64,000 bases of DNA from Macrostomum lignano (GCA_002269645.1 NIVC01001157.1:62001-126000); one strand, 5' to 3'. Positions 9,001 through 62,220 are shown, counted from the first letter of the stretch. The notes: a model not told the origin generated them from the letters alone. A program made the numbers and translations.

Positions 9001-12000
9001 ACTGATAGTGACGCAGACACTGACGCAGATACTGATAGTGACGCAGACACTGACGCAGATACTGATAGTGACGCAGACACTGACGCAGATACTGATAGTG
9101 ACGCAGACACTGACGCAGATACTGATAGTGACGCAGACACTGACGCAGATACTGATAGTGACGCAGACACTGACGCAGATACTGATAGTGACGCAGACAC
9201 TGACGCAGATACTGATAGTGACGCAGACACTGACGCAGATACTGATAGTGACGCAGACACTGACGCAGATACTGATAGTGACGCAGACACTGACGCAGAT
9301 ACTGATAGTGACGCAGACACTGACGCAGATACTGATAGTGACGCAGACACTGACGCAGATACTGATAGTGACGCAGACACTGACGCAGATACTGATAGTG
9401 ACGCAGACACTGACGCAGATACTGATAGTGACGCAGACACTGACGCAGATACTGATAGTGACGCAGACACTGACGCAGATACTGATAGTGACGCAGACAC
9501 TGACGCAGATACTGATAGTGACGCAGACACTGACGCAGATACTGATAGTGACGCAGACACTGACGCAGATACTGATAGTGACGCAGACACTGACGCAGAT
9601 ACTGATAGTGACGCAGACACTGACGCAGATACTGATAGTGACGCAGACACTGACGCAGATACTGATAGTGACGCAGACACTGACGCAGATACTGATAGTG
9701 ACGCAGACACTGACGCAGATACTGATAGTGACGCAGACACTGACGCAGATACTGATAGTGACGCAGACACTGACGCAGATACTGATAGTGACGCAGACAC
9801 TGACGCAGATACTGATAGTGACGCAGACACTGACGCAGATACTGATAGTGACGCAGACACTGACGCAGATACTGATAGTGACGCAGACACTGACGCAGAT
9901 ACTGATAGTGACGCAGACACTGACGCAGATACTGATAGTGACGCAGACACTGACGCAGATACTGATAGTGACGCAGACACTGACGCAGATACTGATAGTG
10001 ACGCAGACACTGACGCAGATACTGATAGTGACGCAGACACTGACGCAGATACTGATAGTGACGCAGACACTGACGCAGATACTGATAGTGACGCAGACAC
10101 TGACGCAGATACTGATAGTGACGCAGACACTGACGCAGATACTGATAGTGACGCAGACACTGACGCAGATACTGATAGTGACGCAGACACTGACGCAGAT
10201 ACTGATAGTGACGCAGACACTGACGCAGATACTGATAGTGACGCAGACACTGACGCAGATACTGATAGTGACGCAGACACTGACGCAGATACTGATAGTG
10301 ACGCAGACACTGACGCAGATACTGATAGTGACGCAGACACTGACGCAGATACTGATAGTGACGCAGACACTGACGCAGATACTGATAGTGACGCAGACAC
10401 TGACGCAGATACTGATAGTGACGCAGACACTGACGCAGATACTGATAGTGACGCAGACACTGACGCAGATACTGATAGTGACGCAGACACTGACGCAGAT
10501 ACTGATAGTGACGCAGACACTGACGCAGATACTGATAGTGACGCAGACACTGACGCAGATACTGATAGTGACGCAGACACTGACGCAGATACTGATAGTG
10601 ACGCAGACACTGACGCAGATACTGATAGTGACGCAGACACTGACGCAGATACTGATAGTGACGCAGACACTGACGCAGATACTGATAGTGACGCAGACAC
10701 TGACGCAGATACTGATAGTGACGCAGACACTGACGCAGATACTGATAGTGACGCAGACACTGACGCAGATACTGATAGTGACGCAGACACTGACGCAGAT
10801 ACTGATAGTGACGCAGACACTGACGCAGATACTGATAGTGACGCAGACACTGACGCAGATACTGATAGTGACGCAGACACTGACGCAGATACTGATAGTG
10901 ACGCAGACACTGACGCAGATACTGATAGTGACGCAGACACTGACGCAGATACTGATAGTGACGCAGACACTGACGCAGATACTGATAGTGACGCAGACAC
11001 TGACGCAGATACTGATAGTGACGCAGACACTGACGCAGATACTGATAGTGACGCAGACACTGACGCAGATACTGATAGTGACGCAGACACTGACGCAGAT
11101 ACTGATAGTGACGCAGACACTGACGCAGATACTGATAGTGACGCAGACACTGACGCAGATACTGATAGTGACGCAGACACTGACGCAGATACTGATAGTG
11201 ACGCAGACACTGACGCAGATACTGATAGTGACGCAGACACTGACGCAGATACTGATAGTGACGCAGACACTGACGCAGATACTGATAGTGACGCAGACAC
11301 TGACGCAGATACTGATAGTGACGCAGACACTGACGCAGATACTGATAGTGACGCAGACACTGACGCAGATACTGATAGTGACGCAGACACTGACGCAGAT
11401 ACTGATAGTGACGCAGACACTGACGCAGATACTGATAGTGACGCAGACACTGACGCAGATACTGATAGTGACGCAGACACTGACGCAGATACTGATAGTG
11501 ACGCAGACACTGACGCAGATACTGATAGTGACGCAGACACTGACGCAGATACTGATAGTGACGCAGACACTGACGCAGATACTGATAGTGACGCAGACAC
11601 TGACGCAGATACTGATAGTGACGCAGACACTGACGCAGATACTGATAGTGACGCAGACACTGACGCAGATACTGATAGTGACGCAGACACTGACGCAGAT
11701 ACTGATAGTGACGCAGACACTGACGCAGATACTGATAGTGACGCAGACACTGACGCAGATACTGATAGTGACGCAGACACTGACGCAGATACTGATAGTG
11801 ACGCAGACACTGACGCAGATACTGATAGTGACGCAGACACTGACGCAGATACTGATAGTGACGCAGACACTGACGCAGATACTGATAGTGACGCAGACAC
11901 TGACGCAGATACTGATAGTGACGCAGACACTGACGCAGATACTGATAGTGACGCAGACACTGACGCAGATACTGATAGTGACGCAGACACTGACGCAGAT

Positions 12001-14334
12001 ACTGATAGTGACGCAGACACTGACGCAGATACTGATAGTGACGCAGACACTGACGCAGATACTGATAGTGACGCAGACACTGACGCAGATACTGATAGTG
12101 ACGCAGACACTGACGCAGATACTGATAGTGACGCAGACACTGACGCAGATACTGATAGTGACGCAGACACTGACGCAGATACTGATAGTGACGCAGACAC
12201 TGACGCAGATACTGATAGTGACGCAGACACTGACGCAGATACTGATAGTGACGCAGACACTGACGCAGATACTGATAGTGACGCAGACACTGACGCAGAT
12301 ACTGATAGTGACGCAGACACTGACGCAGATACTGATAGTGACGCAGACACTGACGCAGATACTGATAGTGACGCAGACACTGACGCAGATACTGATAGTG
12401 ACGCAGACACTGACGCAGATACTGATAGTGACGCAGACACTGACGCAGATACTGATAGTGACGCAGACACTGACGCAGATACTGATAGTGACGCAGACAC
12501 TGACGCAGATACTGATAGTGACGCAGACACTGACGCAGATACTGATAGTGACGCAGACACTGACGCAGATACTGATAGTGACGCAGACACTGACGCAGAT
12601 ACTGATAGTGACGCAGACACTGACGCAGATACTGATAGTGACGCAGACACTGACGCAGATACTGATAGTGACGCAGACACTGACGCAGATACTGATAGTG
12701 ACGCAGACACTGACGCAGATACTGATAGTGACGCAGACACTGACGCAGATACTGATAGTGACGCAGACACTGACGCAGATACTGATAGTGACGCAGACAC
12801 TGACGCAGATACTGATAGTGACGCAGACACTGACGCAGATACTGATAGTGACGCAGACACTGACGCAGATACTGATAGTGACGCAGACACTGACGCAGAT
12901 ACTGATAGTGACGCAGACACTGACGCAGATACTGATAGTGACGCAGACACTGACGCAGATACTGATAGTGACGCAGACACTGACGCAGATACTGATAGTG
13001 ACGCAGACACTGACGCAGATACTGATAGTGACGCAGACACTGACGCAGATACTGATAGTGACGCAGACACTGACGCAGATACTGATAGTGACGCAGACAC
13101 TGACGCAGATACTGATAGTGACGCAGACACTGACGCAGATACTGATAGTGACGCAGACACTGACGCAGATACTGATAGTGACGCAGACACTGACGCAGAT
13201 ACTGATAGTGACGCAGACACTGACGCAGATACTGATAGTGACGCAGACACTGACGCAGATACTGATAGTGACGCAGACACTGACGCAGATACTGATAGTG
13301 ACGCAGACACTGACGCAGATACTGATAGTGACGCAGACACTGACGCAGATACTGATAGTGACGCAGACACTGACGCAGATACTGATAGTGACGCAGACAC
13401 TGACGCAGATACTGATAGTGACGCAGACACTGACGCAGATACTGATAGTGACGCAGACACTGACGCAGATACTGATAGTGACGCAGACACTGACGCAGAT
13501 ACTGATAGTGACGCAGACACTGACGCAGATACTGATAGTGACGCAGACACTGACGCAGATACTGATAGTGACGCAGACACTGACGCAGATACTGATAGTG
13601 ACGCAGACACTGACGCAGATACTGATAGTGACGCAGACACTGACGCAGATACTGATAGTGACGCAGACACTGACGCAGATACTGATAGTGACGCAGACAC
13701 TGACGCAGATACTGATAGTGACGCAGACACTGACGCAGATACTGATAGTGACGCAGACACTGACGCAGATACTGATAGTGACGCAGACACTGACGCAGAT
13801 ACTGATAGTGACGCAGACACTGACGCAGATACTGATAGTGACGCAGACACTGACGCAGATACTGATAGTGACGCAGACACTGACGCAGATACTGATAGTG
13901 ACGCAGACACTGACGCAGATACTGATAGTGACGCAGACACTGACGCAGATACTGATAGTGACGCAGACACTGACGCAGATACTGATAGTGACGCAGACAC
14001 TGACGCAGATACTGATAGTGACGCAGACACTGACGCAGATACTGATAGTGACGCAGACACTGACGCAGATACTGATAGTGACGCAGACACTGACGCAGAT
14101 ACTGATAGTGACGCAGACACTGACGCAGATACTGATAGTGACGCAGACACTGACGCAGATACTGATAGTGACGCAGACACTGACGCAGATACTGATAGTG
14201 ACGCAGACACTGACGCAGATACTGATAGTGACGCAGACACTGACGCAGATACTGATAGTGACGCAGACACTGACGCAGATACTGATAGTGACGCAGACAC
14301 TGACGCAGATACTGATAGTGACGCAGACACTGAC
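1..14334. repeat. 30-bp tandem satellite (GACACTGACGCAGATACTGATAGTGACGCA)n, ~477 copies visible, runs off the left edge
   Basis: Read directly. Only three interruptions seen: an 8-bp insertion GACTGACA at 1771 and again at 3639, and a 1-bp deletion near 4135. The unit is five related 6-mers. The [10 protein letters not shown] ORFs in the track are one reading frame of this repeat. Confidence 0.98.
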
Positions 14335-14537
14335 AACACATCTACAGACACTGACTGGCACAAATACAGATACAGCTACAGATACAGATAGTATTAGCCG
14401 CACTCTGGTCATACCTCTAACAGACCATTGAAACAATAGAGTCAAACAAAACAGCAAAGCAAGTCTCAAAGCAGGCGCATTTACAGTTCTTAGGAAGGCA
14501 TTTTTACGTTTTGTTTCCTAATCGCATGAAATTCCAG

Positions 14538-30650: not shown

Positions 30651-33600
30651 GCCTGTCTGTCTGTCTGCCCGTCTGTCTGCCTGTCTGTCTGTCTGTCTGT
30701 CTGTCTATATTAATATTAATCTATATGTATGTATCTCACATCTCAGGCCCCCCAGCTGGACATCAACACGGTGGCCGCAGGCGGCGGTTCCCGCCTGTTC
30801 TTCCGCTCCGGCCTGTTCGTCGTCGGGCCCGAGTCGGCTGGCGCGCACCCCGGCCCGGTCTGCTACAGGAAAGGCGGCCCCCTGACCGTCACGGATGCCA
30901 ACCTGGTGCTGGGCCGGCTGCTCCCGGATCAGTTTCCGAAGATCTTTGGACCCACCGCTGATCAGGCGCTGGACGCAGAGGGGGCAAGGTGAGATTTTGG
31001 GATATTGATTGATGAGATCCAGGCATGAGATTGACTGATTGATGAGATTCACTGAGATTGATAAGATCCTGTGAAATTGATTGATAGAATTCTAGTGAGA
31101 TTGATTAATTGATAATATCCAGTGAGATTGATTAATTGATAATATCCAGTGAGATTGATAATATCCAGTGAGATTGATAATATCCCGTGAGATTGATAAG
31201 ATCTAGTGAGATTGATAAGATCCAGTGAGATTGATAAGATCTAGTGAGATTGATAGGATCCAGTGAGATTGATAAGATCCAGTGAGATTGATAAGATCTA
31301 GTGAGATTGATAATATCCAGTGAGATTGATAAGTCCAGTGAGATTGATAAGTCCAGTGAGATTAATAGGATCCAGTGAGATTGATAAGATCCAGTGAGAT
31401 TGATTAATTGATAAGATTCAGTGAAATTGTTTGATGGAATTCTAGTGAGATTGATTAATTGATAAGATCCAGTGAGATTGATTAATTGATAATATCCAGT
31501 GAGATTGATAATATCCAGTGAGATTGATAATATCCCGTGAGATTGATAAGATCTAGTGAGATTGATAAGATCCAGTGAGATTGATAAGATCTAGTGAGAT
31601 TGATAGGATCCAGTGAGATTGATAAGATCCAGTGAGATTGATAAGATCTAGTGAGATTGATAATATCCAGTGAGATTGATAAGTCCAGTGAGATTAATAG
31701 GATCCAGTGAGATTGATAAGATCCAGTGAGATTGATTAATTGATAAGATTCAGTGAAATTGTTTGATGGAATTCTAGTGAGATTGATTAATTGATAAGAT
31801 CCAGTGAGATTGATTAATTGATAATATACAGTGAGATTGATAAGATCCAGTTAGATTGATAAGATCCAGTTAGATTGATAAGATCCAGTTAGATTGATAA
31901 GATCCAGTGAGATTGATTAATTGATAAGATTCATTGAGACTGATTGATAAGATTGATTGAGACTGATTGATAAGATTGATTGAGACTGATTGATAAGATT
32001 CATTGAGACTGATTGATAAGATTCATTGAGACTGATTGATAAGATTCATTGAGACTGATTGATAAGATTCATTGAGACTGATTGATAAGATTCATTGAGA
32101 CTGATTGATAAGATCCAGTGAGACTGATTGATAAGATTCATTGAGACTGATTGATAAGATTCATTGAGACTGATTGATAAGATTCATTGAGACTGATTGA
32201 TAAGATTGATTGAGACTGATTGATAAGATTCATTGAGACTGATTGATAAGATTGATTGAGACTGATTGATAAGATTCATTGAGACTGATTGATAAGATTC
32301 ATTGAGACTGATTGATAAGATTCATTGAGACTGATTGATAAGATTCATTGAGACTGATTGATAAGATTCATTGAGACTGATTGATAAGATTCATTGAGAC
32401 TGATTGATAAGATCCAGTGAGACTGATTGATAAGATTCATTGAGACTGATTGATAAGAGTAGTAGGAAAGTGGTACCCTCTACCGCCATCGCACGGGATT
32501 GGCCGGGGCACCCGGCCAATGAGGGGAGAGGGCGCCCCGAAGACGCCCACCCCGACGCCAAACCCACCCCGACCCCAAACCCACCCCGACCCCAAACCCA
32601 CCACCGCCACGCACCCAATCCCGACCCCAAACCCACGCACCCACCCCCGACCCCAAACCAGGCCCCCTCCTGTCCTACACCCCTCCTGTCCTGCACCCCG
32701 TGCATCCCATACCAAGACCCCCTCCTGTCCTGCACCCCGTGCATCCCATACCAAGACCCCCTCCTGTCCTGCACCCCGTGCATCCCATACCAAGACCCCC
32801 TCCTGTCCTGCACCCCGTGCATCCCATACCAAGACCCCCTCCTGTCCTGCACCCCATGCATCCCATACTAAGACCCCCTCCTGTCCTACACCCCTCCTGT
32901 CCTGCACCCCGTGCATCCCATACCAAGACCCCCTCCTGTCCTGCACCCCATGCATCCCATACCAAGGCCCCCTCCTATCCTACGCCTTGCCCCATCCCAT
33001 GTAGCAAGGTCCTTCTATCCTGTACCCTAACCAAAACCAATTCCCCCCTCCTAATTCCTAAACCCAAGTCTTATTACCTGTCTCACTTACCGCCTTTAAA
33101 GCTAGCCAAGGCAAAACCCTCATTCCATGCTTTGGTTGTACTGTATCTTGCTGTGGCGGGTACAGCGTGAGGTCGTTAGACCTAGAACGCTACTTCTTGG
33201 CGGCCAGAGGGCCGCAAGAAGGTCCCGCCACCTCCTGTTACGTTGATGGCTGAGACTTTGTTAAGGCCCGAGTTCCTGCGAAAGGGCTGCTGTGTGGGGG
33301 TTGGATTTGGGGTTCGGATTAGTTATTTCTATGGAACAGGAGCTGGTTTCTAAATGGCTGAGTGGTCCCCGGAAGGGCTCCTGATTTGCCGAGAGTTCCT
33401 GTGAGAGGGCTGTTGTGTGGGGTTGGATTCGGGGTTCGGATTGGTTATTGCTATGGAGCGGGAGCTGGTGTTACTTACCAACTCTCGTCGTATATAATCT
33501 CGCACACAGCCGGAAGGAAAGCTCACAGTGAACAAAATGAACTTCAAGACATTATCGAACAGATTTCGAATCGGCGTCAGGTCGCACTCGAAGTGCATCA

Positions 33601-36600
33601 GCATCAGAAAGTGGTACAAATTTGATGAAGAGTATCGACCAGGTCTGCCTGGCATGGAGCTCACCGTCCACCAGTTTTGCCACTTGGGCAGCCTGAAGGA
33701 ACGACTGGAAGAGTTTGCAAGAAAGTGTATCGATGCGCAATGCCTTCTGGGTGGCAACAGGCAAGTGGTTGTGCAAAATGGCGTAATCACACTCTGGCGC
33801 CTTCCAACTGTACTCGGACCGCCGGTGCACCTAAGGCACGCCTTACCGCTTCCTACAAAACTTTGGCGCGAAGTCTGGGCTCAAAAGCATTGGGTCCTAG
33901 ACAAAATTGTCAAGCGAGAACCTCCGGTCAAGCCACCGATCGGCGATCCATGGGATACCACCCTACGGAGCCTGAAGAGTGTGCAGCATGGGCAGCAAGG
34001 CTTACACTCGACCAACTTATACAAGTACCTGACAGGCAGCCGGCAGAGTGGGACGACCACTGGGAGGCTTTCCAGGCAGTTCAGGCTGAATTTAGAAAGA
34101 GATTTGCATCCGAAACTCTGGAAGAGCCACCAACAGCTGAGAAGAACCAACAGCCTTCATTCCACCAGCCACCAATGAAGCGACGCGCAATGCATGAAGC
34201 GACAACTGGTCATTTCGTCAATTAACGTTTTTAATATAGTTTTGAACCATAGTACTGATCATGCACTGTTGTATATACTGCTTTGTCAATACTGGCTATA
34301 ATATTGCCCCATCATGCTTTGATTCCGGGCGATAATACTGTTTTGTAAATACAGGCGACGGGCCTTAATACTGCCCTTCCATTCTTAATAAACTTTTTTG
34401 TGCTAATACGAGCTTTTAACATGTAATTTTATGCTTTTCAATCCATGGACCTGCCAATAAAATAAACAAAAAAAAACATTTCATTTTCGTAAGCATTGTT
34501 GCACAAACATAGTCGCATTCGCGTTTATTTTTTCTTATATTTTGTACACAAAAAATATAGAAGTAAAGTTATAGGAAAAATATTATTATTATTATAATTA
34601 TTATTACTCGGTGCATAGGCAGATCTCACTACTACTGTTATGCCGTAGAGGAGCTCAGTCAGAGTCCAGCAAAGTAGGTTCGGATGCTTGATCTGGTAGC
34701 AAAATGCGGGAGAGGGCATCAGCTGCAGTCTGAGCCTCAACCACGCTGCGAGCACCAGCTATTATACAGCGATATGAATGAAACAAAATCAACTTTACAG
34801 AGGCAGTAAACTCGAGCACAAGTCCGTTAAACATTTCCGGCTCGTAGGTGGCCCGATGCGGCCATTTAGACTTGACTTCCCCCAACCGGAGTGGATGCCG
34901 ACCCGCGGGAAAGGTCGTCACAGAGGTAATAGTCTTGATGCGAATCTGGGGCAGACTGGTCAATCGCAAGAAGTCCGCACACAACTTCACAATCTTCTCT
35001 GTCTCTGCGAGAGCTTCCTCCATGCTTTTGGCTCCACAGACAGACACTTGTCCGGTCGGATACACCAGCGCGGTTACTCGATGCTGCCCGCTCTTCATCA
35101 CCACAGCCAGTGTTCGAGGATGAACCAGGCGATGGCGGATTGTGTGATACTGAGGCAGATGAAGAGTCAGGAAATTCGCTAGTTGTGGCAGAGCCACCCG
35201 GGTCGCCAGGTCGGCTCCTGTCACGATGTTTGTTACGCGAATTGCTCCGGCCATCTTTAGACAATCGAGAGAAATGCCAGTGCCTGCTGCAGATCGCTAC
35301 TTTTATAGACCCGTAGCCGCGAGGCCGCAGCCAATCAGCGTACAGCGCCACCTTGGCCAGGGCGTAGGGTAGCACGTACTTCGAGGCACTCGGAAAGGCC
35401 AGGTGTGCGAGGTCGTAGACAGGCTGTAGCAGCAGACGCGACAGGAACTGGCACTTGACATCCCCCTTGCTAAATATCGGGCCTTGCAAGTGAGAGATAT
35501 CGCTCCAGAGACAAGAGTAGGGTCGGAACCCACTCCTGTCCCAGTCTAGACCGTGCCGCTTATTGGTGAGCCAGTAGCAGGTTCGTCGCTGTCCTCGATC
35601 AAAGAGCTCAAAGCTGTGCGGCGGTCGGTAGCAATAGTAATGAGCCGTCGTTTGACCGCATGCAAACTCAACCCATGCAATTTCCTTAATCACAAAGTCC
35701 TCTGTTTTGTAGAGGTGCGGAAATCCTTCAAAATCAATGACAATCATCTTGGCCACTTGATCCACTTGCCGTATCCTTTCTGAGACTGAGTCTTCTTATA
35801 GTCTTGCAGTCGAGGTTTTTTAGGACTAGACTTTTCTTCCCGAGGCTTTTCCAGCAATTTTGTAGTGTTCAGACCAACTGCAGACAGAGGCACGTGGTTT
35901 TCTTGAAGACACGTAACAAACTCATTAATCCCATTCGGTGGCTGAAGGTACTTAGAGTACGTATCTTTAACTATGAAATGCAGCAGGTCCACGATATTTG
36001 AGTTGTACAACGGTTTACCATTGACAGAAACTTCATACGTATCATCTATGCTAATCGACTTGCACTTTACGGTTATGAAGCTAATCAATGCCTGCAGACG
36101 ATGATGCCATTTCTGATTCACCGTCAGATATAAAACCTCCTTCCACTGCGGTTCTTTGTGAATTACTGGAGGCTGTTCTTGGGTCGCACTTGCCTGCAGC
36201 TGCTGCACGCAACGCTCGTCCCTAATCTTGCGCAACCGTTTTTCCGCCTCTAGCTCGGGTTCACAGACTGTCTCCATGCCCCTCTGATTCACAAGTGCCT
36301 CATACTGCAACCGGGGTACCAGTATCATTTCCTTGTACATGTCTTTTTATACAGGTGAGAATCAGAGGAAGACAACGAAGGATATGCGGGTGTGAGAGAT
36401 TGCGCCGAGCCTCTTTCACACTTTTGCTTTGTGCAACAAGCCGGAGAGTATTTCGATATCGCCTGAGTCTCCGCTTCAAGCTATCTTCACAGCCAACTTT
36501 TCCTGCTAGTAAGTTGATAATACACTCGACCAAAAAGCAAATGGTGCTTTTATTTGCATAGGTAAGTATGCAGCGACGCAAGGATATAGTGCCCTCACAA

Positions 36601-39600
36601 AAGACAGTTATTAGTGCAATGTGTTTATCCATGTTTAACTCAGTGCAGAGACTGAGCCATTCTTATAGATAAACTCGCTGCGGGGCCTCATCGGGGAGAA
36701 AATTGGCTCTCAGGCGCAGTTCATGGGGTGAAGCGGGGTGAAAATCAAGCAGCAGATAGCGCTGATCTCCATCTCGCACCAATCGATCCATCAGTTCTAC
36801 TAGCAGAGTGCGCCGTTTGGGAAAGCATTGCTGACTTAAAGCTTGGACCGCAGAGGCGTCTCTGGGGTTGTTGAACAACACAATGTAGGTGCAATTTATG
36901 CTAATTGTGCGCCACTCTCTGCCTTTGAAAAATAGATTTTGCGTGATGAGAATGACAAAGCAGGGCTTGTGGTGAGCCTCACGGGTGAACAGATGTCGTA
37001 GCTCTCGACTTGCAGCTGCTTCATCCAGTAAATCGTCAATCACAATCAGGTCATGGGGCTGCAGATCCAAATTCGATAATCCTTCACATACTTGCACTCC
37101 TAGCCGCCGCAGAGTCGTGTGGAGTTCCGGCTGCGGGCATCCGTGATACCAAATCATCCGCTTGGGAGGTTGGTCGAACAGAAGCAGTCGTTGGGACAGC
37201 AACCGCAAACAGAATGTTGATTTTCCCGCTCGAGAAGGGCCCGAAACCATCATGCAGCCTCCCATCCGCAGTCTGGAATCAAACACATTGCAACTGATTT
37301 TTGAGTCTGAGTATGATTGCATCGTTTTGAGCCACAGCTGCCGGGTGCAAAACCTTGATGAACAAGGCATTATATGACATTCTCTTATGTAGTCGATGGA
37401 TCAAGTAAAAAATGCAATACCAGCCGCATAGAGTTGACGAACTGGGCTGAACAGGGACCGTATTCCATTGTAGCACCATCCGCGTCGGTTTAGTTTTCTT
37501 TAACCAGCTCTTCATATTTTTACTCAATATTGGGGTGGAGGGACTTGACTTCAAATACTTCCTCACTCCATCCCCTTGTGTATCCCTTGGTGAATGGGTT
37601 GGCCAGATTGCGAAGAGAGATTCGCACCATCATTCCTGCCTTGAACTTTGGTCTGGAGACCTTTTCACGAGTCTCAGGAAGCTTCCCATCGTAAAGCCGC
37701 TGCCAAATTTCCATCTCGTTTGACTTGTCGACATCAACTGGTCGGCTTTGAATACTCCGATGAATATTCTGGTTGTATGCTTTTGCTAAGGGTTGAAGCA
37801 CATCGGTCCAGGTTAATGTTGACTTGTGACGGAAGTACCGCCACATTCGGGATTTCAGTGTGCGGTTCCATCTCTCAATGGCTGCGCATTTCTGGTCACT
37901 ACTTGATGTGAATGCATGAATTTTGTGGTTTACGCAGAGGGCTCGGAACTGGGTGTTGCAAAACTCTTTTCCACGGTCGGTCCGAACTGCTCGTGGGCAT
38001 CGAGGGTGAGCTCGATTTAGGATCGCTTCGAATCCGGCTGCAACCTCCTCGGCTGTCTTGCGGCGCACTGGCTGAACCCAGGCAAACTTGCTGAGCACAT
38101 CAATGCAGCATAGAATATATCGTACGCCGCCATTGTACTTAGCGAACGGCAGCATTTCAACAAGGTCCAGTTCCCACTGGTCATCCATGCCCCGCACCAC
38201 AATCGGTGCTCGACAAAAGTTTTTGCGTTTATCTCTATGCAGTGTGTAGACATCTTGGTCTTGGAGCCACGTTTTTACCTTTAATTGTAAAAAAAAAAAC
38301 TGGAAATTGCTAGTTAGTGGATAAAACTAAAAACCTAAGCTGGAATTTTCTAGAAAATCATTGGTTTAGAAGTATATCGTATATGCATACCTGCCCTACA
38401 CTAAACTTGGGTCCGTGGTGTTTGTGCAACTCTCGTTTTAATGCCTGATAGCCGCCATAGCTGCCCGGTCTACTGCAGTCAAAATAAATACCTGGCAGAA
38501 GGTTTGAAATTGCCTTTTTCGTTTTCATTTTACCGAATTTCTAGTACCTATCATTTTCTTATGCCAAACACCCGGCTTGAAAAAAAAAACTGCCCACCCC
38601 ACCAGTTTCTGCGGATTTAGCGTTTCTAGCCTCTGTTGTGCACGAAAAAGCATGCATGTTTGCACAAAATACATACATTTCGATGGGAATTTTTACCCGA
38701 ATGTGTGCACAAAAAACCTCAACACTTTGCATACTTTTTAACACTGTGCACGAAAACTTGCATACTTGTGCACAAAATACATGTATTTCAATAGGGATTT
38801 GTACCCGAACCCTCGCATGAAAGTAGACGCATTTTGTCGAAAAATTCACGCCGTATTGCATACTTTTAATCACTGGACGAAAACTTGCATACTTTTGCAT
38901 AAAACACATGTATTTCAATAGAGATTTTTAACCTTTTTTAAGTGCATGAAATTTTACATTGTTTTACACGATTTAATTTTACACAAAAACTAGTATTTCG
39001 ATTTGAATTTAGTTTGTTTTATATATTATTTTATCGACAGTTTTAAACCCTTTTTACTTTATGAAAATAAATAAAAAAAAATTTTCTTTTTACCAGCCTC
39101 AACTCAAACTAACATATATACATTTCATGTTTATTAAAAAAGTGCCATAATTCCTCGTTAGTAATTAAAAATCAGCAAATGAAACGTACAAAAATGCAAC
39201 GCACACATTGGCAGTATTATCGGCCAAAACATTCTGATTATATTAAAAAATGGTATCAATGGTATTTTTATTATCTAGACAGCAGAATAAAACAAAACAT
39301 CATCGTTATTATCAATAAACAAGGTAGGTACAAGTTTCGTATTCAGAAAAATCTAGTCAAACGGGCAGGGTCGCTTTCGCTTCTCAGCCTCTAGACGCCA
39401 GTGGCCGTAGGGTAGGCTCTGATTTGCCGCGAGCCATGCCCTCTTGTCCTCCCAAAACGAGAGTGCGCGTTTCAAGGTGGCAGTGGTGAACAACTCATGA
39501 TGCTCACTGGCAATACGACGCGTCAGCCAGGACTTTTCTTCCATTTTCATCAAAGTTTCGCAGTAGTCGGCGTGGCAGATTTCATTTTGCACTACAGATC

Positions 39601-42600
39601 GCTGCACACCCTTAGCACGACGCTTGTCCTTGGAGGAGTTTACTGCAGCAAAGGAATAGAGCTTGGGACGCAACAGGATCCACTCATAAAAGTTCGCTGT
39701 ACCATCGCTCTCATCCTTTACACAGCCTAACCTTGCTTTGCGTTCGCAAGTATACAAGCAATGGTCCTTGGGATAATTAGAGGTGTCCAGCAGCTCCATT
39801 TCGCACAGTTTAGGCAGAAACCATCGCTCGCCATCAGCATTCTTTAAGTGGAGGAAGAAAGAGTCAGTGTCACCGCCGAGCAGACTGAGGCTCGCACACG
39901 GTAACTGATTGACCAGCGGAAGCAGCTTATCATACCACAAGCTGTACATAATGAGTTTGCTGTTATCAAGGACACACTGTCCGATGTACACCGGTTTGTT
40001 GAGCTCGACTGTTGTCTTGCGCATGTGGACGAGAACAAGATTCTCATTAAATATCTCTTGATCTTCAAAGTTAGGTTTAGCTGCGAGCTTCTCCAACTTC
40101 TCTGCTGAGTTGACCAGGCGGTAGTCGACGCGTTTGCGCACGTTCTCCATGGTCTTTCCAAACAGAGAGTTGTTCAGCAGCTTATTATAATCCTTTTCAA
40201 ACTCATTTTTGGCTTGTGCACGCCGCTCACTATTACGTCGAATGTAAGGCTCGAGTACTGCTGCTTGCTGAAAGCGAACAATGCAGTGGACAGTACGCAG
40301 CCTAAGACCTAGACGGAGATAAAACTGTAGGATTCTGGCGTGTACAACATAGCTGGTTTTATCAAAGCATGTCAACATCAACTTGTCGCCTCCTGAATTA
40401 TATCCTCCGCAAGAGAGCCTCTGTCTAGAAAGTAGTTCCCAGAGCTGCTGCTGATGCGGCGGCATCCATTCCCATTGAGGCTGCGCCTTCTCTGGAGCAA
40501 GGGGCAAGTCTGATGTCTTGTCGTGCAACTCTGGGGGGTAATGGAGATCAACCTTTAGCAGGTATCCAACATCGCCCTCTGGGTCAAACTCATCCCTGAT
40601 CCATCTCTCAACCTCATTGTTTGGTGGTACAGTGTCAAGCACTTGGAACCCACACCATGGCAGTTTGGTGGACAAGGCGTGTCCGTAGAGGTTGTTGGCG
40701 TCGATGGGGATAAGATAGGTTTGAGGTTGATGCGAATCATACAGCTCACCGAGTCCGGGATGGTTGGCTTTGGCTCTGTGTGTGTTGACAAATGTCATAC
40801 CACCACGAGTACCCTCTTCAAATAAGCTGTACAACTCTGGACATTGCAGCAATTCAAGCTCCAATTTACAGTACTTAAGCGCTGCTTCGAAAGACATTCC
40901 CGGCGTCGTTATAAAATGCACTGGGTCTAGCCCATCCGAAGTGAGGCTCATTCGACGAAACGCCTCGAACACATCGGCGAGCTGGCGAATGTCCATTTCT
41001 AGGTATGCAAGCATGTAGTCGCGCAGTGTCTCACATCCAAACTCTCTCCAGGCACGCTGGGCAGTTGCATAGTCCTGATCATTGCAAGGCTCATTGTTCA
41101 AGTCGTTAGCAAAAGCTTCTTGGGATGGGAGCTGTTGCTCATCTAAATTCGAATCACTAGTTACATAGGAATAGGGGAACACCCCCTTTCGCAGTAGGAC
41201 TTCGGTGGAGGCGAGTGGATATCGCTGCTGCATCTCCATCGTGTAGTGACAGTCTACCGGGGTTAGATTGCGCACTAATTGAGCAAGACTCGACGCCATG
41301 AATTGGAAAGAGTCGAGAAAACGCAGACGCATGAATTTTGGCACCAAGCGATCTTTAGATGAGTCATAGACCGACTCAATAGGTATACGGGCCTCTAGAG
41401 TCATGTAACGCTCCTTTGTTTGTGCAATGACACTTAGTTCCCAATGTTTCATACGACCGATCACCGTGCTGCACAACAAGTGTGAATCATAACCTCGGAA
41501 ATTGTGAAAAAAGATTGGAAGAAAGTCGCGCTTGAGAACAGCTGACTCATTACACGACGGGCATGCAGCACCCAAAAACTTGCCATTGAGATGATCATGA
41601 TGAAAGTGGCGATCGTCATCAAGAACTTTCTCGCACAAGCAGCAATGAGTGGCAGTCTGGAACTGCTCTTCCTCCTGGACAGAGCGATTGGCAGGGTAAT
41701 GACTATGTCGCGCATTCCACTTGTATGCTGCAATGGCGACAGCCTCCAGTGCCTGTAGGAAGTGCATCATGCACTCATCCGACTTTTAAAACAGCTGCAT
41801 AGGACGTTTGGAGAGTGGAGGCCCAGCTACGTCACTTCTTTGGACAATAAGGAATCCGGCAGCGGCTGGAAGGTGGTGTGCAGTCTTAAAGGTAACACAG
41901 CCATCTAGCTCATCGTCTATGGGGGACATCATTGCTTCAAAATCTGCATAGATGACATGAGGTGGGGAGAGTGTTTTGTGCCATGCCTTGAATCGTAGTG
42001 TTTTATCCTTTGGCATCACCTCCTCCATGCTATCCTTACGGCCAATGCACCGCCGTCTATGAACGGATAGAGACTCAACCGTCCGGAACTTGCCTAGACA
42101 GCGATCGCACCAACGATATCTATGCGCGTCATGACTGTTCATTAGACGATCTAGGTTAGCAATAGCACACCAATGGTTGCCGGCATCAGTGGTAACCAAT
42201 AGAAGCAGGATCAATCGATGAGGTCGCCATTCCTGAATGAGATCTGCTGGGGCTGGGCGTAAGCACTGGGCATGGCCGTTAGTCCAGTTGAAGGCCGAGA
42301 TAGCCAATCCTGGATTGTTCTTTTCCACTCGACCCAGGTCATTCACGTTGGCAGGGAAAGGAACGTTGTCCCAACGGAGTTCGTCTTCCCACTCCCGGAA
42401 AGTGGAGCGTCGCAAAGGCTTCTCACTGCTGACACGGTCTGCGTGCAATGCAGACAGAACGGCATATTTCAGACAGTCGTTCCCACTGGAGTAGGCATTG
42501 ATCACTGCCTTTTTAGCCTTTAGCTTTGGTGGAAGTTCAAATGGGTTGGAACTTATACCTGAGCCATGAGGCAACTGATATCTTACAATGGAAAGATCTA

Positions 42601-45600
42601 CGCAGCGAGTGGAGTCAATTGTCCACCCACTGCCATTGCGAAGGTATTTGCTCAGTCGTTCCAAAATAAGTGGGATTTCCCGAACAAAGAAATCTTCTTC
42701 CTCATCTGAAAGGACTTCGGCCGTTTCACTGGCAAACCAGGCTGTGCTCTGCGCCACAAAGCTGCCACCAGCCCAACGCTGCATAGACACGCCGAGTCGG
42801 ATTTGGACCTTGATGGCAAAGCCTGGTTTCGAACGCAGATCTGCCAGGAGTTCTGTGCCTGAAGCAATGGATGACTCCAGGGCGTCGATGGGATCGCCGG
42901 CAACGATCCGCCGATAGAGTCGCGTCTGGCCGAAAAATGCTTCTTTAATTAATTGGAATTGACATGGTTCATCAGAAAATAAAGTTGGAATAATTGGGCA
43001 CACTGAGTAGTGAGCTAATATGTCACCGGGCACTGTCTGACTACAGTATTCACAAAATGTCATGTTTAAAATTTAGAACGCAAAATTTAAAAGTCTTTAA
43101 ATAAAACTCTAGGACCGAAAAACTGTGAGCTTTCCTTCCGGCTGTGTGCGAGATTATATACGACGAGAGTTGGTAAGTAACACCAGCTCCCGCTCCATAG
43201 CAATAACCAATCCGAACCCCGAATCCAACCCCACACAACAGCCCTCTCACAGGAACTCTCGGCAAATCAGGAGCCCTTCCGGGGACCACTCAGCCATTTA
43301 GAAACCAGCTCCTGTTCCATAGAAATAACTAATCCGAACCCCAAATCCAACCCCCACACAGCAGCCCTTTCGCAGGAACTCGGGCCTTAACAAAGTCTCA
43401 GCCATCAACGTAACAGGAGGTGGCGGGACCTTCTTGCGGCCCTCTGGCCGCCAAGAAGTAGCGTTCTAGGTCTAACGACCTCACGCTGTACCCGCCACAG
43501 CAAGATACAGTACAACCAAAGCATGGAATGAGGGTTTTGCCTTGGCTAGCTTTAAAGGCGGTAAGTGAGACAGGTAATAAGACTTGGGTTTAGGAATTAG
43601 GAGGGGGGAATTGGTTTTGGTTAGGGTACAGGATAGAAGGACCTTGCTACATGGGATGGGGCAAGGCGTAGGATAGGAGGGGGCCTTGGTATGGGATGCA
43701 TGGGGTGCAGGACAGGAGGGGGTCTTGGTATGGGATGCACGGGGTGCAGGACAGGAGGGGTGTAGGACAGGAGGGGGTCTTAGTATGGGATGCATGGGGT
43801 GCAGGACAGGAGGGGGTCTTGGTATGGGATGCACGGGGTGCAGGACAGGAGGGGGTCTTGGTATGGGATGCACGGGGTGCAGGACAGGAGGGGGTCTTGG
43901 TATGGGATGCACGGGGTGCAGGACAGGAGGGGTGTAGGACAGGAGGGGGCCTGGTTTGGGGTCGGGGGTGGGTGCGTGGGTTTGGGGTCGGGATTGGGTG
44001 CGTGGCGGTGGTGGGTTTGGGGTCGGGGTGGGTTTGGGGGTCGGGGTGGGTTTGGCGTCGGGGTGGGCGTCTTCGGGGCGCCCTCTCCCCTCATTGGCCG
44101 GGTGCCCCGGCCAATCCCGTGCGATGGCGGTAGAGGGTACCACTTTCCTACTACTGATAAGATTCATTGAGACTGATTGATAAGATCCAGTGAGACTGAT
44201 TGATAAGATTCATTGAGACTGATTGATAAGATTCATTGAGACTGATTGATAAGATCCAGTGAGACTGATTGATAAGATTCATTGAGACTGATTGATAAGA
44301 TTCATTGAGACTGATTGATAAGATTCATTGAGACTGATTGATAAGATTCATTGAGACTGATTGATAAGATTCATTGAGACTGATTGATAAGATTCATTGA
44401 GACTGATTGATAAGATTCATTGAGACTGATTGATAAGAACCAGGGAGATTGATTCATAAGATGCGGTGAGATTGATTGATTGATTGATAGGATCCAGTGA
44501 GATTGATAGGATCCAGTGAGATTGATAGGATCCAGTGAGATTGATAGGATCCAGTGAGATTGATAGGATCCAGTGAGATTGATAGGATCCAGTGAGATTG
44601 ATAGGATCCAGTGAGATTGATAGGATCCAGTGAGATTCAATGATTCAATCTAGATTCTGCCAATCGCAGTCGCAGTTGATTGATGATCCCTAAATTGCAA
44701 AATCTCTTATCTCAGACAGGCAATGTCAGCGCTGACAGATGAGATCAACGCTTTCTTATCAGCAGAGACCGGCCAGGCTGCCATGTCAGTTGAGGAGGCC
44801 GCCCTAGGCTTCGTGCGAGTCGCCAACGAGTCAATGTGCCGCCCTATTAGGGCTCTGACCCAGGCTAAGGGGCACAATACGGCTAAGTAAGTCTGGGACA
44901 TTGGGGTCTGGTTTAGCTTTGCTTGCTGCTGATTACCAATCTGTATCTATTTGTCACTCTTTATTACCTATCTGTCACTCCATAGTTAACTGTTTGTCAC
45001 TCCATAGCTACCTCTGTCACTCTATAGCTACCTATCTGTCACTCCATAGCTACCTCTGTCACTCCATAGCTACCTATCTGTCACTCCATAGCTACCTATG
45101 GATACATATCTACATAACTCCATATAACTCCATAGCTACATATCCGCCACGCCCTAACCGCCATAGCTATCTATCTGGCACTCCATAGCTGCAGGGTGGT
45201 CCGTAGACACAGCGGGGAGGCGAGGGTCGCCCATTCCGCTACACTCCATAGCTACCTGTCTGTCACTCCATAGCTACCTGTCTGTCACTCCATACCTACC
45301 TGTCTGTCACTCCATAGCTACCTGTCTGTCACTCCATAGCTACCTGTCTGTCACTCCATAGCTACCTATCTGTCACTCCATAGCTACCTATGGATACATA
45401 TCTACATAACTCCATATAACTCCATAGCTACATATCCGCCACGCCCTAACCGCCATAGCTATCTATCTGGCACTCCATAGCTGCAGGGTGGTCCGTAGAC
45501 ACAGCGGGGAGGCGAGGGTCGCCCATTCCGCTACACTCCATAGCTACCTGTCTGTCACTCCATAGCTACCTGTCTGTCACTCCATACCTACCTGTCTGTC

Positions 45601-54600: not shown

Positions 54601-57600
54601 ACCCGGCGACCCCAACCGGTAGCTACACGCGGCAACCCTAACCGATAGCTACACCCGGCAACCCCAACCGATAGCTACACGCGGCAACCCTAACCGGTAG
54701 CTACACGCGGCAACCCTAACCGGTAGCTACACCCGGCAACCCCAACCGATAGCTACACGCGGCAACCCTAACCGGTAGCTACACCCGGCGACCCCAACCG
54801 GTAGCTACACGCGGCAACCCTAACCGGTAGCTACACGCGGCAACCCTAACCGGTAGCTACACCCGGCGACCCTAACCGATAGCTACACCCGGCAACCCCA
54901 ACCGATAGCTACACGCGGCAACCCTAACCGGTAGCTACACGCGGCAACCCTAACCGGTAGCTACACCCGGCGACCCCAACCGGTAGCTACACGCGGCAAC
55001 CCTAACCGATAGCTACACCCGGCAACCCCAACCGATAGCTACACGCGGCAACCCTAACCGATAGCTACACCCGGCAACCCCAACCGATAGCTACACGCGG
55101 CAACCCTAACCGGTAGCTACACCCGGCAACCCCAACCGATAGCTACACCCGACAACCCTAACCGGTAGCTACACCCGGCAACCCCAACCGATAGCTACAC
55201 CCGGCAACCCTAACCGGTAGCTACACCCGGCAACCCCAACCGATAGCTACACCCGGCAACCCTAACCGGTAGCTACACCCGGCAACCCTAACCGGTAGCT
55301 ACACCCGGCAACCCGAACCGGTAGCTACACCCGGCAACCCTAATCCGCAGGTGGGCATCTACCGCCTTGACCGCCTGTCACCCGGGCAGTGCATCACCGG
55401 CCCAGCCGTGGTGCTTGAGCAGAACTCAACCGTACTGGTGGAGCCGGATTGGACAGCCAGCCTCACCAAAACAGCCGACCTTCTAATCAGTCGCAAATCA
55501 GCAGAAGCCGCCGCCTCCGTCAACGAAACAGCCGTCGCCGAATCGGAGGTGAAGGTGGACAGCATTCAGCTGAGCATTTTCTCGCACCGGTTTATGTCCA
55601 TAGCTGAGCAGATGGGCCGGGTGCTGCAGAGAACCAGCATCTCTACTAACATCAAGGAGCGTCTGGACTTCAGCTGCGCTCTGTTTGGACCCGACGGGGG
55701 CCTGGTAGCCAACGCGCCTCACATCCCGGTGCACCTGGGTGAGCTGTTCTCCTAATCTCTGTGATGGCCTATTCCCAAGGCAAAGAATGTGATGTGATCC
55801 CATCGTTTTAAATCCCAAATTCCCAGTTTGTTAATCCCCAACTAACCACAGATCCCATTGCTCTAAATCCCAAATCCCCAACAATCCCCAACAGATCCCA
55901 TTGCCCTAAATCCCAAATCCCTAACTAACCACAGATCCCATTGCTCTAAATCCCAAATCCCCAACTAACCACAGATCCCATTGCTCTAAATCCCAAATCC
56001 CCAACTAACCACAGATCCCATTGCTCTAAATCTCAAATCCTTAACTAACCAAAAATCCCATTGCCGCAGGCGCCATGCAGGAGACGGTGCGCTATCAGAT
56101 GGCCAACTGCGAGTTGTTGCCAGGCGATGTCATCCTGGCCAATCACCCGCGGGCCGGCGGCAGCCACCTGCCGGACCTGACCGTCATCACGCCCGTGTTC
56201 CTGCCGGGCTCCGGCCAGTCTCCCATATTCTTCGTTGCCAACCGAGGCCATCACGCTGACATCGGTGGCCGAACTCCGGGCTCGATGCCTCCTGACTCGC
56301 ACAGCATCTTGGAGGAGGGCGCCGTGTTCCGCTCGTTCCATCTGGTCCGCGGCGGCCAGTTCCGCGAGGCCGAAGTCACCAAAGAGTTGATGGCGCCAGC
56401 CCAGCTTCCTGGCTGCTCTGGGACGCGAAATTTGCACGACAATTTGAGCGATTTGAGGGCTCAGGTGGCAGCCAATCAGAAGGGCGTTGCTTTGGTTACG
56501 GCGCTGATTGAGGAGTATAGTCTGGGGGTTGTGCAGGCTTATATGAAATTTATACAGGTGAGAATGCACTTTAAGTTTTTATTGCTATTTTCTTAGATTT
56601 GAAGTTTTAGGGATCTATATTTGAGATTATAGGATCTATAAATTTGAGTATATGGGATCTATAAATTTAAGGATATGGGATCTATAAATTTGAGGATATG
56701 GGATCTATAAATTTGAGGATATGGGATCAATAAATTTAAGGATATGGGATCTATAAATTTAAGGATATGGGATCTATAAATTTGAGGATATGGGATCTAT
56801 AAATTGAAGGATATGGGATCTATAAATTTGAGGATATGGGATCAATAAATTGGAGGATATGGGATCTATAAATTTGAGGATATGGGATCAATAAATTGGA
56901 GGATATGGGATCTATAAATTGAAGGATATGGGATCTATAAATTGAAGGATATGGGATCTATAAATTGAAGGATATGGGATCTATAAATTGGAGGATATGG
57001 GATCTATAAATTTGAGGATATGGGATCAATAAATTTGAGGATATGGGATCAATAAATTGGGAGATATGGGATCTATAAATTGAAGGATATGGGATCTTTA
57101 AATTTGAGGATATGGGATCTATAAATTTGAGGATATGGGATCTATAAATTGGAGGATATGGGATCTATAAATTGGAGGATATGGGATCTATAAATTGGAG
57201 GATATGGGATCTATAAATTGGAGGATATGGGATCTATAAATTGGAGGATATGGGATCTATAAATTTGAGGATATGGGATCTATAAGTTGGAGGTTATAGG
57301 ATCTTTAGATTTGAGAATATATGATCTATAGATTTGAGGATATGGGATCTATAAAATTAAGGATATGGGATCTATAAATAAAAGGTCTAGGGATTTTTTT
57401 GATTTGAAGTCTCGGGGATTTCAGATTTAAGGATTTATTTAGGCTTTTCAATCCAACCCAATCCCCAGGCGAACGCGGAGACGGCCGTTCGCGACCTGCT
57501 CCGTCGGGTTGGCGCCTCAGCTTTGGCGCGCACCGGCGCCTCGCGCCTCTCCTTCGCCGACAGCCTCGACGACGGTTCCGACATTCGGCTGAGCGTCGAC

Positions 57601-59777: not shown

Positions 59778-61761
59778 TCGATTGATGCACTTTTATGTGC
59801 TGATTATAACATTCAATAGTGTGTTGGGTGCCAATAGTTTTTTCTGTTAGAATTGCCAATATTTATGTTTTTTCGTTAGTTTAGAAACCGATTAGAATTA
59901 TTTAGCGGCAATTAGAACCCGTGAAACTGAATAGGAGAGTCAATGATCTTTAATTTGTTTAAAAACATTTAGATACTAAATTTAGCGTCATGATTCATAC
60001 TACTTATGTATGCTTAGTAGTCAAGTAGTGCGTAATTCGCAATATTTAGCCAAGTAGAGTGTAGCAGATTATTTTTTCACTTAATTTTTTGATTTTTGCA
60101 ATATAATGCAGTCTTATTGATTGATTTTTAGGCAATTAAACCTCCGTTATTATTTATCTTGTATGTCATGCCTCTTGCTCAAAATAGACTTTATTTCTGT
60201 AGTACAGAAATTATCATTTCGCTTAGCTACACAAATAAATAAATTGATTAATTTTAGTAATCTGCTGGCTGATAGTTCTTCTCGCTGAGTTGTTTAATTT
60301 AATACACAATAGTCTGGTGAGTCGCGCCACCAAACCCAGTACCAATGTCACAATGTGTGTCGTGTGGCATCGTCCACTATCCCAGTGTGTCGTGCCACCC
60401 CTGTGCCAGACATCTACATGTATGTGCTCAGTGCCACTTACACTTGATATTAATTGTAATCGACTAACTCTTTCATCGCTTTATACTGAATCTATTAGTA
60501 TTTTATTCCTAAAGACAGTAACTGCGAAACATTTAAATAGTTTGTAGCATTTGCAACGGACAAAGCCGAAGATAAAGTTCATATTGCAGCCATTTCAGCA
60601 ATTATAGCTTAAATTATTTGCGTCAAGACCTAGTTTTAACATTAATTTCTATAATTGTTTTAGTAATGCTTGAACACAGCTATTTGCTGCTTTGGAATTG
60701 TTTATTTGCGGTGCGAATCATCCACGCTCTGTCTATAAATTTAAATGTTCAATTTTCTATGAAAGCAAGTTCAAGCAGTTCGAAAGCTGCTAAAAATTAC
60801 TAAAGCTAATACTCTGTTAACTTAATTTACAGCCACGCTGATGTATTTTTTCAAATGTATTTTTTTGCAGTTTCTTTTCTTTTCGGTTTTTAATATGATG
60901 ATAGGATTTCTAAATAGATTGATTTATTGATATTTTTACGATTGACTGAATCAATAAACGATTCAGGTCTTGAGGTCTATAAAATGAAAAGAGCTAAGTG
61001 AATCAGAGACAATGAATATTTGAAATTACTCAAACGTTTCTTAAACAATAAAAGTATCCATATAGTAATCTTATAGGTTTAGAATCAGATGTAGCTCTAG
61101 CTCTAGCCAGTTTTATTATATGCTACACATCTATATAAACAATGATTCTACTATGACTATAGTACTCTACTTTAACAAATTTATGGTTGCATGAAAGCCA
61201 ATGCAGGAAGTTGTCTTGAAAGCTTAAAAATAATTAAAAGGTGACATTTAACAACAAAATTTCAGTATTTTACTATTTTGTGGCAATGTGGCAATCAAAA
61301 ATACATATATGAAATTATAAAAAGTTGCTATTTTTAGATATTATTCATTAATTTTGGTCTCTAAGAAATTTTGCTCCATTATACCAAGTATAGTGTCATA
61401 GCCTTCATTCTATACCTCACCAACTAGAGTGGATTAAAAACTAGAGAAAATTAGACTGTTTTATATAAGATATAACTGGGACAATCTAATAGAAAAGAAG
61501 CAGTATAGTTTTAACTTTTAAATCAATATGTTTTGTCAATCTAAATTTATCTAAGTTGTCACTAAAAAGTATAATATTAATAATTTTTCAGTAATTTAGA
61601 TAAAAAAATAAGACTTAGACATAGTAAGTTCAACATAAATTTTTTTTCTCTATAATTTTAATGCTCCTAATTTCTAATGGTTCAAATTGTTAATGATAAA
61701 GTTTCAAATGAATTTGTTTTTTGTGTTGTTTGCATGCTTACCAATTTATCTTGTCTTCACT

Positions 61762-62139
61762 ATGCTCAGCTTATTTGCACTCGTGCTACTGTTAGTAGTG
61801 CCCAGCAGTGCCCTAGCTAGTAGGTCCGTGTCTGGCTATTTGATCTACTGCCCCTGTATGGGCCGTTTTGGCAATCAGGCTGAGCAGTTTCTTGGCGTCC
61901 TGGCATTTGCCCGCCAACTCCGCCGAACCCTGGTTGTGCCGCCATGGATATCGTATGGCAGGCCGGGTGCTGGCATCGACCTCACACCGTTTGGCAGGCA
62001 TTTCAACCTGACCAAGTTGGATGCCGCCCATCCAGTGATTGATATGCGCCAGTTTGTTGACAAGCTCTCGCCCGCTCTGTGGCCGGCTGGCAGCAGGGCA
62101 GTATTTTGCCACTCTGCTAGAGAGGATGGCACTTGTCAG
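61762..62139 (+). CDS. POFUT1: GDP-fucose protein O-fucosyltransferase 1, first coding exon (gene continues beyond the window)
   Basis: Signal peptide MLSLFALVLLLVVPSSALA, then GYLIYCPCMGRFGNQAEQFLGVLAFARQLRRTLVVPPW (GT65 signature); donor CAG|GTGCGG at 62140. Confidence 0.92.
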
Positions 62140-62220
62140 GTGCGGGCATTTTTCAAAGGCCTGTTATAAAAATTTTATTGTGACGAATTTGAAGCATCTC
62201 TGATCTTTTCCGTAGACTTT

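Follow-up and report, generated by a model that had tools for sequence, protein, structure and literature searches.

The Polinton/Maverick copy that lies within a 64,000-nt stretch of the Macrostomum lignano genome (GCA_002269645.1, NIVC01001157.1:62001-126000; the whole stretch is here called the window) raises the question of whether such an element can encode a TATA-binding protein (TBP) of its own and, if so, which promoters that protein would read. The original prediction held that an intronless open reading frame (ORF) in this element is a divergent TBP that either recruits TFIIB to element promoters with altered DNA specificity or sequesters host factors as a decoy. For the Polinton TBP, the evidence that the gene is real is good, and that for the mechanism is moderate.

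Structure of the element

The Polinton setting of the ORF was borne out, as the element at 32458-44155 has the AGTAGT ends, the (AGT)2-ended terminal inverted repeats (TIRs), and the 6-bp target site duplication (TSD; GATAAG) by which Polintons/Mavericks are recognized. It lies between exons of a host gene of the 5-oxoprolinase type (Pfam Hydantoinase_B at 56075-56593; the upstream exons are presumably those of the same gene), and the inner 811 nt of its TIRs are perfectly complementary, which indicates a young insertion. The copy belongs to the first of three groups of M. lignano elements, A, B, and C, and has the following features:

32452-32457 (+): left TSD GATAAG, 6 bp
32458-44155: Polinton/Maverick copy, 11,698 bp, internally deleted, delimited by TIRs, AGTAGT ends, and TSD
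32458-33529 (+): left TIR, beginning AGTAGT; 100% complementarity with the right arm over the inner 811 nt
33491-33498 (+): ordinary TATA box TATATAAT in the left TIR, 46 nt 5' of the PC4-like ATG; putative early promoter
33537-34225 (+): PC4-like gene, in two frames in this copy (Pfam PC4 E 5.6e-5, below cut-off)
34524-34529 (-): AATAAA poly(A) signal 3' of TBP
34532-34539 (-): variant box TATAAGAA on the 3' side of TBP; no gene follows it
34655-35254 (-): element TBP, 199 aa, ATG to stop, no intron required
34866-35747 (-): DEDD/Maelstrom-like ORF, domain at ~35300-35747; its tail overlaps TBP in another frame
35300-35307 (-): canonical TATAAAAG of the TBP gene, starting 53 nt 5' of the ATG, within the DEDD-like coding frame
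35331-35335 (+): CCAAT, reverse orientation, at -81 from the TBP ATG
35744-36340 (-): conserved Polinton ORF, 198 aa, without a box of its own
35793-35800 (-): variant box TATAAGAA, 53 nt 5' of the DEDD-like ATG
36300-36632 (-): conserved Polinton ORF, 110 aa
36660-36667 (-): variant box TATAAGAA, 35 nt 5' of the 110-aa ORF
36663-37370 (-): packaging ATPase (AAA families below cut-off; 45% identity to group B ATPase; weak Pox_A32 match)
37279-37527 (-): C-terminal remnant of an adenain-like protease whose group B orthologue matches Peptidase_C5
37382-37389 (-): near-match box CATAAGAG 5' of the ATPase
37527-37530: deletion junction, ~2.7 kb gone relative to another group A copy
37530-38528 (-): rve integrase (Pfam rve), C-terminally truncated
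38279-38390 (-): integrase intron of 112 nt, predicted for group A; the group B integrase is intronless
38556-38563 (-): variant box CATAAGAA, 35 nt 5' of the integrase ATG
39353-43063 (-): protein-primed DNA polymerase B (pPolB; Pfam DNA_pol_B_2), without a sense-strand variant box
43122-44155 (-): right TIR; TIRs ~1.05 kb each
43153-43160 (-): ordinary TATA box TATATAAT in the right TIR, 97 nt 5' of the pPolB ATG
44156-44161 (+): right TSD GATAAG, 6 bp

The PC4-like gene stands on the plus strand, and its group B orthologue exceeds the Pfam PC4 cut-off; the minus strand carries, in order, pPolB, the integrase, the protease remnant, the ATPase, the 110-aa and 198-aa ORFs, the DEDD-like ORF, and TBP. 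The window copy has both pPolB and the rve integrase, each interrupted, with an in-frame stop at 41786-41788 in pPolB. The 2.7 kb lost at 37527/37530 held the end of the integrase, the minor capsid, a basic protein, the major capsid, and the start of the protease, so that the ATPase, protease, and capsid set is found in the family (another group A copy has the capsid block, and group B elements have a major capsid of the double-jelly-roll type) and is incomplete in the window copy, where the ATPase is present. With its pPolB stop, split PC4-like gene, and missing capsid block, the window copy is defective. Contigs of uncertain kind from four runs had no splice joint and carry no information on transcription. 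We take the minor capsid to be such from its position, and the DEDD label of the ORF at 34866-35747 is likewise our presumption; in Atlas this ORF matched unnamed arthropod-rich clusters (0.96) and Maelstrom (0.86), the latter a lead only. Another group A copy holds a THAP9/P-like transposase in a 5-kb insertion (L045:1068-6083). Elsewhere in the window, positions 1-14500 are a satellite array of ~14 kb with a 30-bp period, many minisatellites fill the host introns, and a protein O-fucosyltransferase exon (Pfam O-FucT) lies at 61693-62169 (+).

A two-lobed TBP

The ORF at 34655-35254 is confirmed to be a real two-lobed TBP. The claim of an intronless 199-aa frame with both TBP repeats held throughout: the frame runs from ATG to stop, Pfam PF00352 matches it in two stretches (E 1.3e-19; 70.2 bits against a cut-off of 22.9), and 35 of its 36 PDB sequence matches are TBPs. 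A saddle fold is predicted as well, with a mean pLDDT of 88.2 and a pTM of 0.78 in the AlphaFold2 model, and the 39 best-ranked Foldseek rows listed against the PDB are all TBP chains (best E 1.5e-12, TM ~0.7). Among viral models (BFVD, Foldseek) the TBPs of NCLDV rank first, and the matching Atlas clusters are generic TBP ones only. The gene was also said to have its own promoter and poly(A) signal; the TATAAAAG at -53 and the AATAAA are present, and the initiator is a by-eye match only.

Distribution, selection, and phylogeny

A genome search with the element TBP returned at least 151 matches (150 of 200 candidates scored), and among the 150 rows listed we assigned by eye ~46 to group A and ~104 to group B, the latter at 35 to 44% identity. 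These counts overstate copy number, because the assembly repeats single-copy loci: the host TBP itself gives three identical matches (C70, C713, C1301). The pPolB of group B is ~50% identical to that of the window, and group B elements hold the full gene set. The suggested search for TBP-like ORFs near pPolB was productive, with a TBP match within 11 kb at 89 of 101 pPolB loci, among the matches listed. In both A and B, TBP has a fixed place after the DEDD-like ORF, as seen at 29 of 30 group A loci. Three group A copies (L018, L019, L021) have in-frame DEDD-like/TBP fusions with three different junctions, and some group B matches have similar open frames of 297 to 391 aa; these fusions may be indels or assembly errors.

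Group C is a third kind of Polinton, with PLA2 and dUTPase genes. We had considered it as a TBP-less control and dropped it from that role, since it carries a TBP itself, found within 13 kb at 41 of the 47 PLA2 loci checked. The group C TBP at L059:2001-2558 (G000:C724) has 17% identity to the window TBP and a Pfam E of 2.3e-7, and its frame is apparently entered via a splice acceptor; a search with the group C TBP gave 83 matches, 22 of them full-length and identical. In one group C subfamily (L064, L067, L068) the TBP frame runs on into a P-loop domain, which we take to resemble a deoxynucleoside kinase. The group C TBP is too divergent for searches with that of group A, so such TBPs may be overlooked in other Polintons.

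Beyond this genome, relatives of the group A type (51 to 63% identity) and of the group B type occur in ENA/Logan assemblies (P0001-3, P0005, P0006, P0154-6), where they are known as sequences without neighbourhood. A search of viral contigs gave no match for TBP or capsid, and a phage search with the element TBP likewise gave no match; a metagenome search gave five loci, of which the three that were read are ordinary-looking TBPs in a non-Polinton context.

The element TBP is under purifying selection. The proposed comparison of copies gave a dN/dS of 0.26 (0.19-0.33) for 14 group B genes and 0.48 (0.26-0.96) for 17 group A copies, the latter after exclusion of 13 of 30 loci as truncated, frameshifted, or fused. 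In group B TBP (L031-L044) dN is 0.049 and dS 0.31 in the N-lobe, against 0.32 and 1.15 in the C-lobe; the N-lobe is thus by far the more uniform, and intragenic recombination between subfamilies is suggested.

A tree of 53 rows (18 element TBPs, the host TBP, the host TRF2-like gene, one NCLDV-like sequence, and 32 unnamed TBPs subsampled from 126; two group C fragments were excluded) unites A and B with support of 96/90 and A, B, and C with 97/86, apart from both host genes, although long branches could produce the grouping of the three falsely. In the suggested phylogeny the element TBPs thus branch away from host TBP and TRF2, and it points to no donor. Metazoan TRF2/TLF is a TBP paralogue that has lost intercalating residues and has non-TATA specificity, and the analogy drawn with it is functional at most: the element TBP is only 19% identical to the host TRF2-like gene, has other substitutions, and does not group with it, which rules out a TRF2 origin.

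A host retrocopy carried passively would fit a gene that is intronless in A and B, a host TBP core that is also a single open frame, and a group A dN/dS interval that reaches 0.96. Against this stand the 24% identity to host TBP, the fixed place after the DEDD-like ORF, the low group B dN/dS, the relatives at 51 to 63% in other assemblies, and the position in the tree; we regard such a retrocopy as extremely improbable, and for the family as a whole it is ruled out by identity, selection, and tree. Far from the one-off capture that was named as the outcome fatal to the prediction, the gene is multicopy and common to related elements, and these comparisons point to a long-standing Polinton gene present in three deeply different groups.

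DNA-binding face and TFIIB stirrup

The predicted residue map is correct at N69 (N9), F116 (Y65), T124 (C73), N159 (T108), F190 (F142), F207 (F158), and T215 (A166), in yeast TBP numbering anchored on host TBP motifs. The loss of F99 also stands, whereas its supposed Leu partner does not: the aligned residue is P46 (profile register, partly by eye) or T48 (phmmer), adjoined by H45 (Trp in group B). The canonical set of four intercalating Phe and two central Asn is therefore incomplete, with F190, F207, and N69 kept, F116Y and N159T substituted, and F99 lost.

The pattern is shared by all 18 element TBPs compared: F116Y, V122S/T, N159T/S, and V161T are present and R196 is lost in 18/18, and F190 and F207 are kept in 18/18. 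Groups A and B additionally have Q158K, V203K, and V208H and lack P191, and all 13 of their rows share K107-T108-x-T110 without change; in group C, P191 is retained and L114Q and L205N are found. Minor-groove valines thus turn polar, and the fixing of new base-facing residues suggests a DNA specificity that is changed rather than lost. The TFIIB-binding stirrup was predicted to be intact, and the acidic E186 and E188 (E138 and E140 in the window protein) are indeed present in 18/18. A complex prediction of the element TBP with a partial host TFIIB core scored 0.02 and carries no weight either way.

The same residues could be read as those of a decoy, a TBP impaired in DNA binding that shuts off the host by sequestering TFIIB or other TBP partners, as F99, N159, R196, T124, and T215 are lost while the stirrup is kept. 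We consider this quite unlikely, since across groups the same new residues have become fixed at base-facing positions instead of drifting freely, and three of the four aromatic positions are retained; a decoy would also leave unexplained the sequence motif described below, and it fits a promoter box less well.

A variant TATA box

A new finding of this analysis is that most of the integrase, capsid, and packaging genes of these elements stand behind an 8-bp variant of the TATA box, YWTAAGMA. It takes the form YATAAGAA in group A, mostly CTTAAGAA in group B, and TATAAGCA in group C, and the genes behind it include the double-jelly-roll capsid. In unbiased 7-mer rankings ATAAGAA came first in group A (5 against 0.39 expected) and TTAAGAA came first in two group B elements (8 against 0.59 and 8 against 0.57 expected). 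Sense/antisense counts of WTAAGAA were 3/0, 4/0, 9/0, 9/1, and 8/0, against 0/0 in pPolB, and 3 of 3, 4 of 4, 8 of 10, 8 of 9, and 4 of 5 matches lay 10 to 155 nt 5' of a start codon, with position tests for this zone giving p values from 1e-2 to 3e-5 per block. Full 8-mers made up 17 of 26 DTAAG sites in upstream zones and 3 of 45 elsewhere or antisense; the 37.7-kb host flank held six on both strands together. The pattern and distance zones were chosen after the sites had been seen, and L057, which is related to L046, is the only element tested with the pattern fixed beforehand. Synonymous-codon resampling was significant in two of five blocks (p 0.002 and 0.04), borderline in one (0.053), and not significant in two.

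Distances from box to ATG in group A are 35 nt for the integrase and the 110-aa ORF, 53 for the DEDD-like ORF, 12 for the minor capsid, 140 for the basic protein, and 105 for the major capsid; in group B they are 59, 44, 149, 110, 45, 46, 47, and 80 nt (L046) and 42, 46, 149, 58, 52, 58, and 74 nt (L057); and in group C they are 21, 51, and 53 nt, with a further site at 7. Many of these (35 to 59 nt) agree with the ordinary TATA boxes (46 and 53), and orthologous genes hold the box at a similar distance despite proteins only 24 to 58% identical. For group C, inspection by eye placed the box before three of five genes, and it is not the top k-mer there; neither the group C ATPase nor the dUTPase has one, nor do the protease and the 198/230-aa gene in A or B. 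The group A minor-capsid box, at 12 nt, is too close to the ATG for TATA geometry. Two group A boxes are followed after 2 to 3 nt by the same CTCAGTCTC (35782-35790 and 36648-36656, minus strand), at these two sites only.

Ordinary TATA boxes stand in the TIRs (PC4-like gene and pPolB) and before the group A TBP. At the place of group A's TATAAAAG, group B has CTTAAGAA, so that its TBP gene stands behind the variant box, not a canonical TATA; in group B a simple early-to-late cascade would therefore require leak or read-through.

The box might instead be read by host factors (host TBP weakly, a TRF2-type factor, or another) or be a 3'-end signal for the gene before it, the element TBP being a general booster or acting in replication or chromatin. 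Many boxes lie at the extreme end of the preceding gene, TATAAGAA is one base off the consensus TATA box, and the TATAAGAA at 34532-34539, outside the tested window block (which ended at 34600), directly precedes the TBP poly(A) signal; having no gene behind it, this box counts against a pure promoter reading. Yet in group A no gene on the same strand directly precedes the integrase boxes, those of the group B integrase come after a separate AATAAA, CTTAAGAA is three bases off TATA, and the same base-facing residues are changed in all three groups, which leads us to rate this alternative as fairly unlikely.

Every box also contains [A/T]TAAG, the baculovirus late motif, and could thus be a baculovirus/nudivirus-type late promoter (DTAAG) read by the RNA polymerase of a helper virus, with another role for TBP. 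Baculovirus late start sites fall within a few bases of the TAAG motif according to the available text of PMC13483298, and such a reader would suit boxes just 12 or 21 nt from the ATG. Most distances are 35 nt or more, however; plain DTAAG is common outside upstream zones (13 sense, non-full sites) whereas the 8-bp form concentrates 5' of genes; and the flanking letters vary by element group, as expected of group-specific readers and not of one helper. Genome searches for LEF-8 and LEF-9, run without a positive control, were blank. A helper polymerase is, in our judgment, unlikely.

Residue and base differences run in parallel to some extent. P191 is said to favour T at box position 1, and ORF24 of KSHV (Kaposi's sarcoma-associated herpesvirus) likewise has a polar DNA face (PMC12529657, available portion). 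P191 is absent in groups A and B, many of whose boxes start with C, and present in group C, whose three pre-gene boxes start with T, a covariation that rests on three groups only. Other base contacts, such as that of V203K with box position 2, are our assumption.

A proposed self-encoded late-gene switch

We favour, with moderate confidence, a self-encoded late-gene switch in which the element TBP reads YWTAAGMA, probably with host TFIIB. Host TBP would fire the early genes from ordinary TATA boxes, namely the TIR-driven pPolB and PC4-like gene and, in group A, TBP as well. The element TBP, its DNA-binding face changed to read the 8-bp box, would then use its intact acidic stirrup to bring in host TFIIB and RNA polymerase II, and would so switch on the genes for integrase, capsid, core, and packaging as a late set. 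Of this, the analysis shows the fold, the linkage, the selection, the pattern of residues, and the enrichment and position of the motif; box binding, TFIIB recruitment, and early/late timing we infer. The predicted TBP of altered specificity that recruits TFIIB thus gains indirect support from the group-specific box, purifying selection, and the stirrup. A genome search for the TFIIB family (PF00382) gave 15 matches on seven contigs, none at a listed element locus, and this, together with the fully conserved stirrup, suggests the use of host TFIIB. The wider proposition, that a broad animal Polinton lineage has long carried its own TBP clade and that this clade, with its group-specific box, works through host TFIIB and Pol II as an early-to-late switch made of one protein, we put at slightly below an even chance.

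The placement of most capsid-module genes behind a matching altered TATA box suggests that these elements switch on their own late genes. Animal Maverick virions were unobserved as of PMC8097293 (available text), and a self-coded TBP with a matching box would offer a concrete route to capsid-gene control in Polintons without a helper virus. If the switch is real, it would constitute a virus-coded system of promoter specificity in minimal form and would provide TBPs and boxes as a series of naturally matched pairs (P191 for position 1, V203K for position 2), the element TBPs being naturally re-specified TBPs for studies of TATA recognition.

Comparison with known systems

The published sources compared here are represented by their accessible portions. 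Like the Polintons, Mavericks, and adintoviruses described (Barreat and Katzourakis 2021, PMC8097293; Starrett et al. 2021, PMC8502044), the M. lignano elements have (AGT)2 TIR ends, a 6-bp TSD, pPolB, an rve integrase, and the ATPase, protease, and double-jelly-roll capsid genes, and group C has a PLA2-like gene as in Alpha-class virion modules. The statement that TBP lies outside the described Polinton gene set holds for vertebrate Polintons, whose eight core genes lack it (PMC8097293), and fails for the Fig. 5 legend of Starrett et al. 2021, where the label "TBP" marks a MELD virus or related element and is not discussed in the accessible text (PMC8502044); this was the one relevant item among the papers searched. 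A term search for TBP or TATA in the accessible text of PMC11161782, PMC10748475, PMC11131425, PMC8097293, and 2026 preprints found neither, and in that of PMC10675990 TBP is confined to mirusvirus-like elements; the open-access papers on Polintons/Mavericks that were searched describe no promoter box.

Baculoviruses share with the elements the 5-bp core of their late promoter, [A/T/G]TAAG, which lies within every element box, but the baculovirus motif holds the start site and is read by a viral four-subunit polymerase (PMC13483298), whereas the elements encode no RNA polymerase and conserve an 8-bp site in TATA register. Large double-stranded DNA viruses likewise have virus-coded, two-lobed TBPs (Ravarani et al. 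2020, PMC7221094); most of these viruses encode a TFIIB themselves and vary in the stirrup, in contrast to the element, with no TFIIB match and a fully conserved stirrup. KSHV ORF24, one of the TBP mimics of beta- and gammaherpesviruses (PMC12529657), is a large, multidomain protein that belongs to a complex of six proteins, makes direct contact with Pol II, and has none of the acidic residues for TFIIB, whereas the element TBP consists of no more than a 199-aa core, with the acidic stirrup kept and P191 (in A and B) and F99, both needed by ORF24, lost. The two systems are alike in a virus-coded TBP fold with a polar DNA face and in a non-canonical box, which is TATTWAA before the late genes of KSHV and, in the element, YWTAAGMA before genes that would be late and read through the element TBP.
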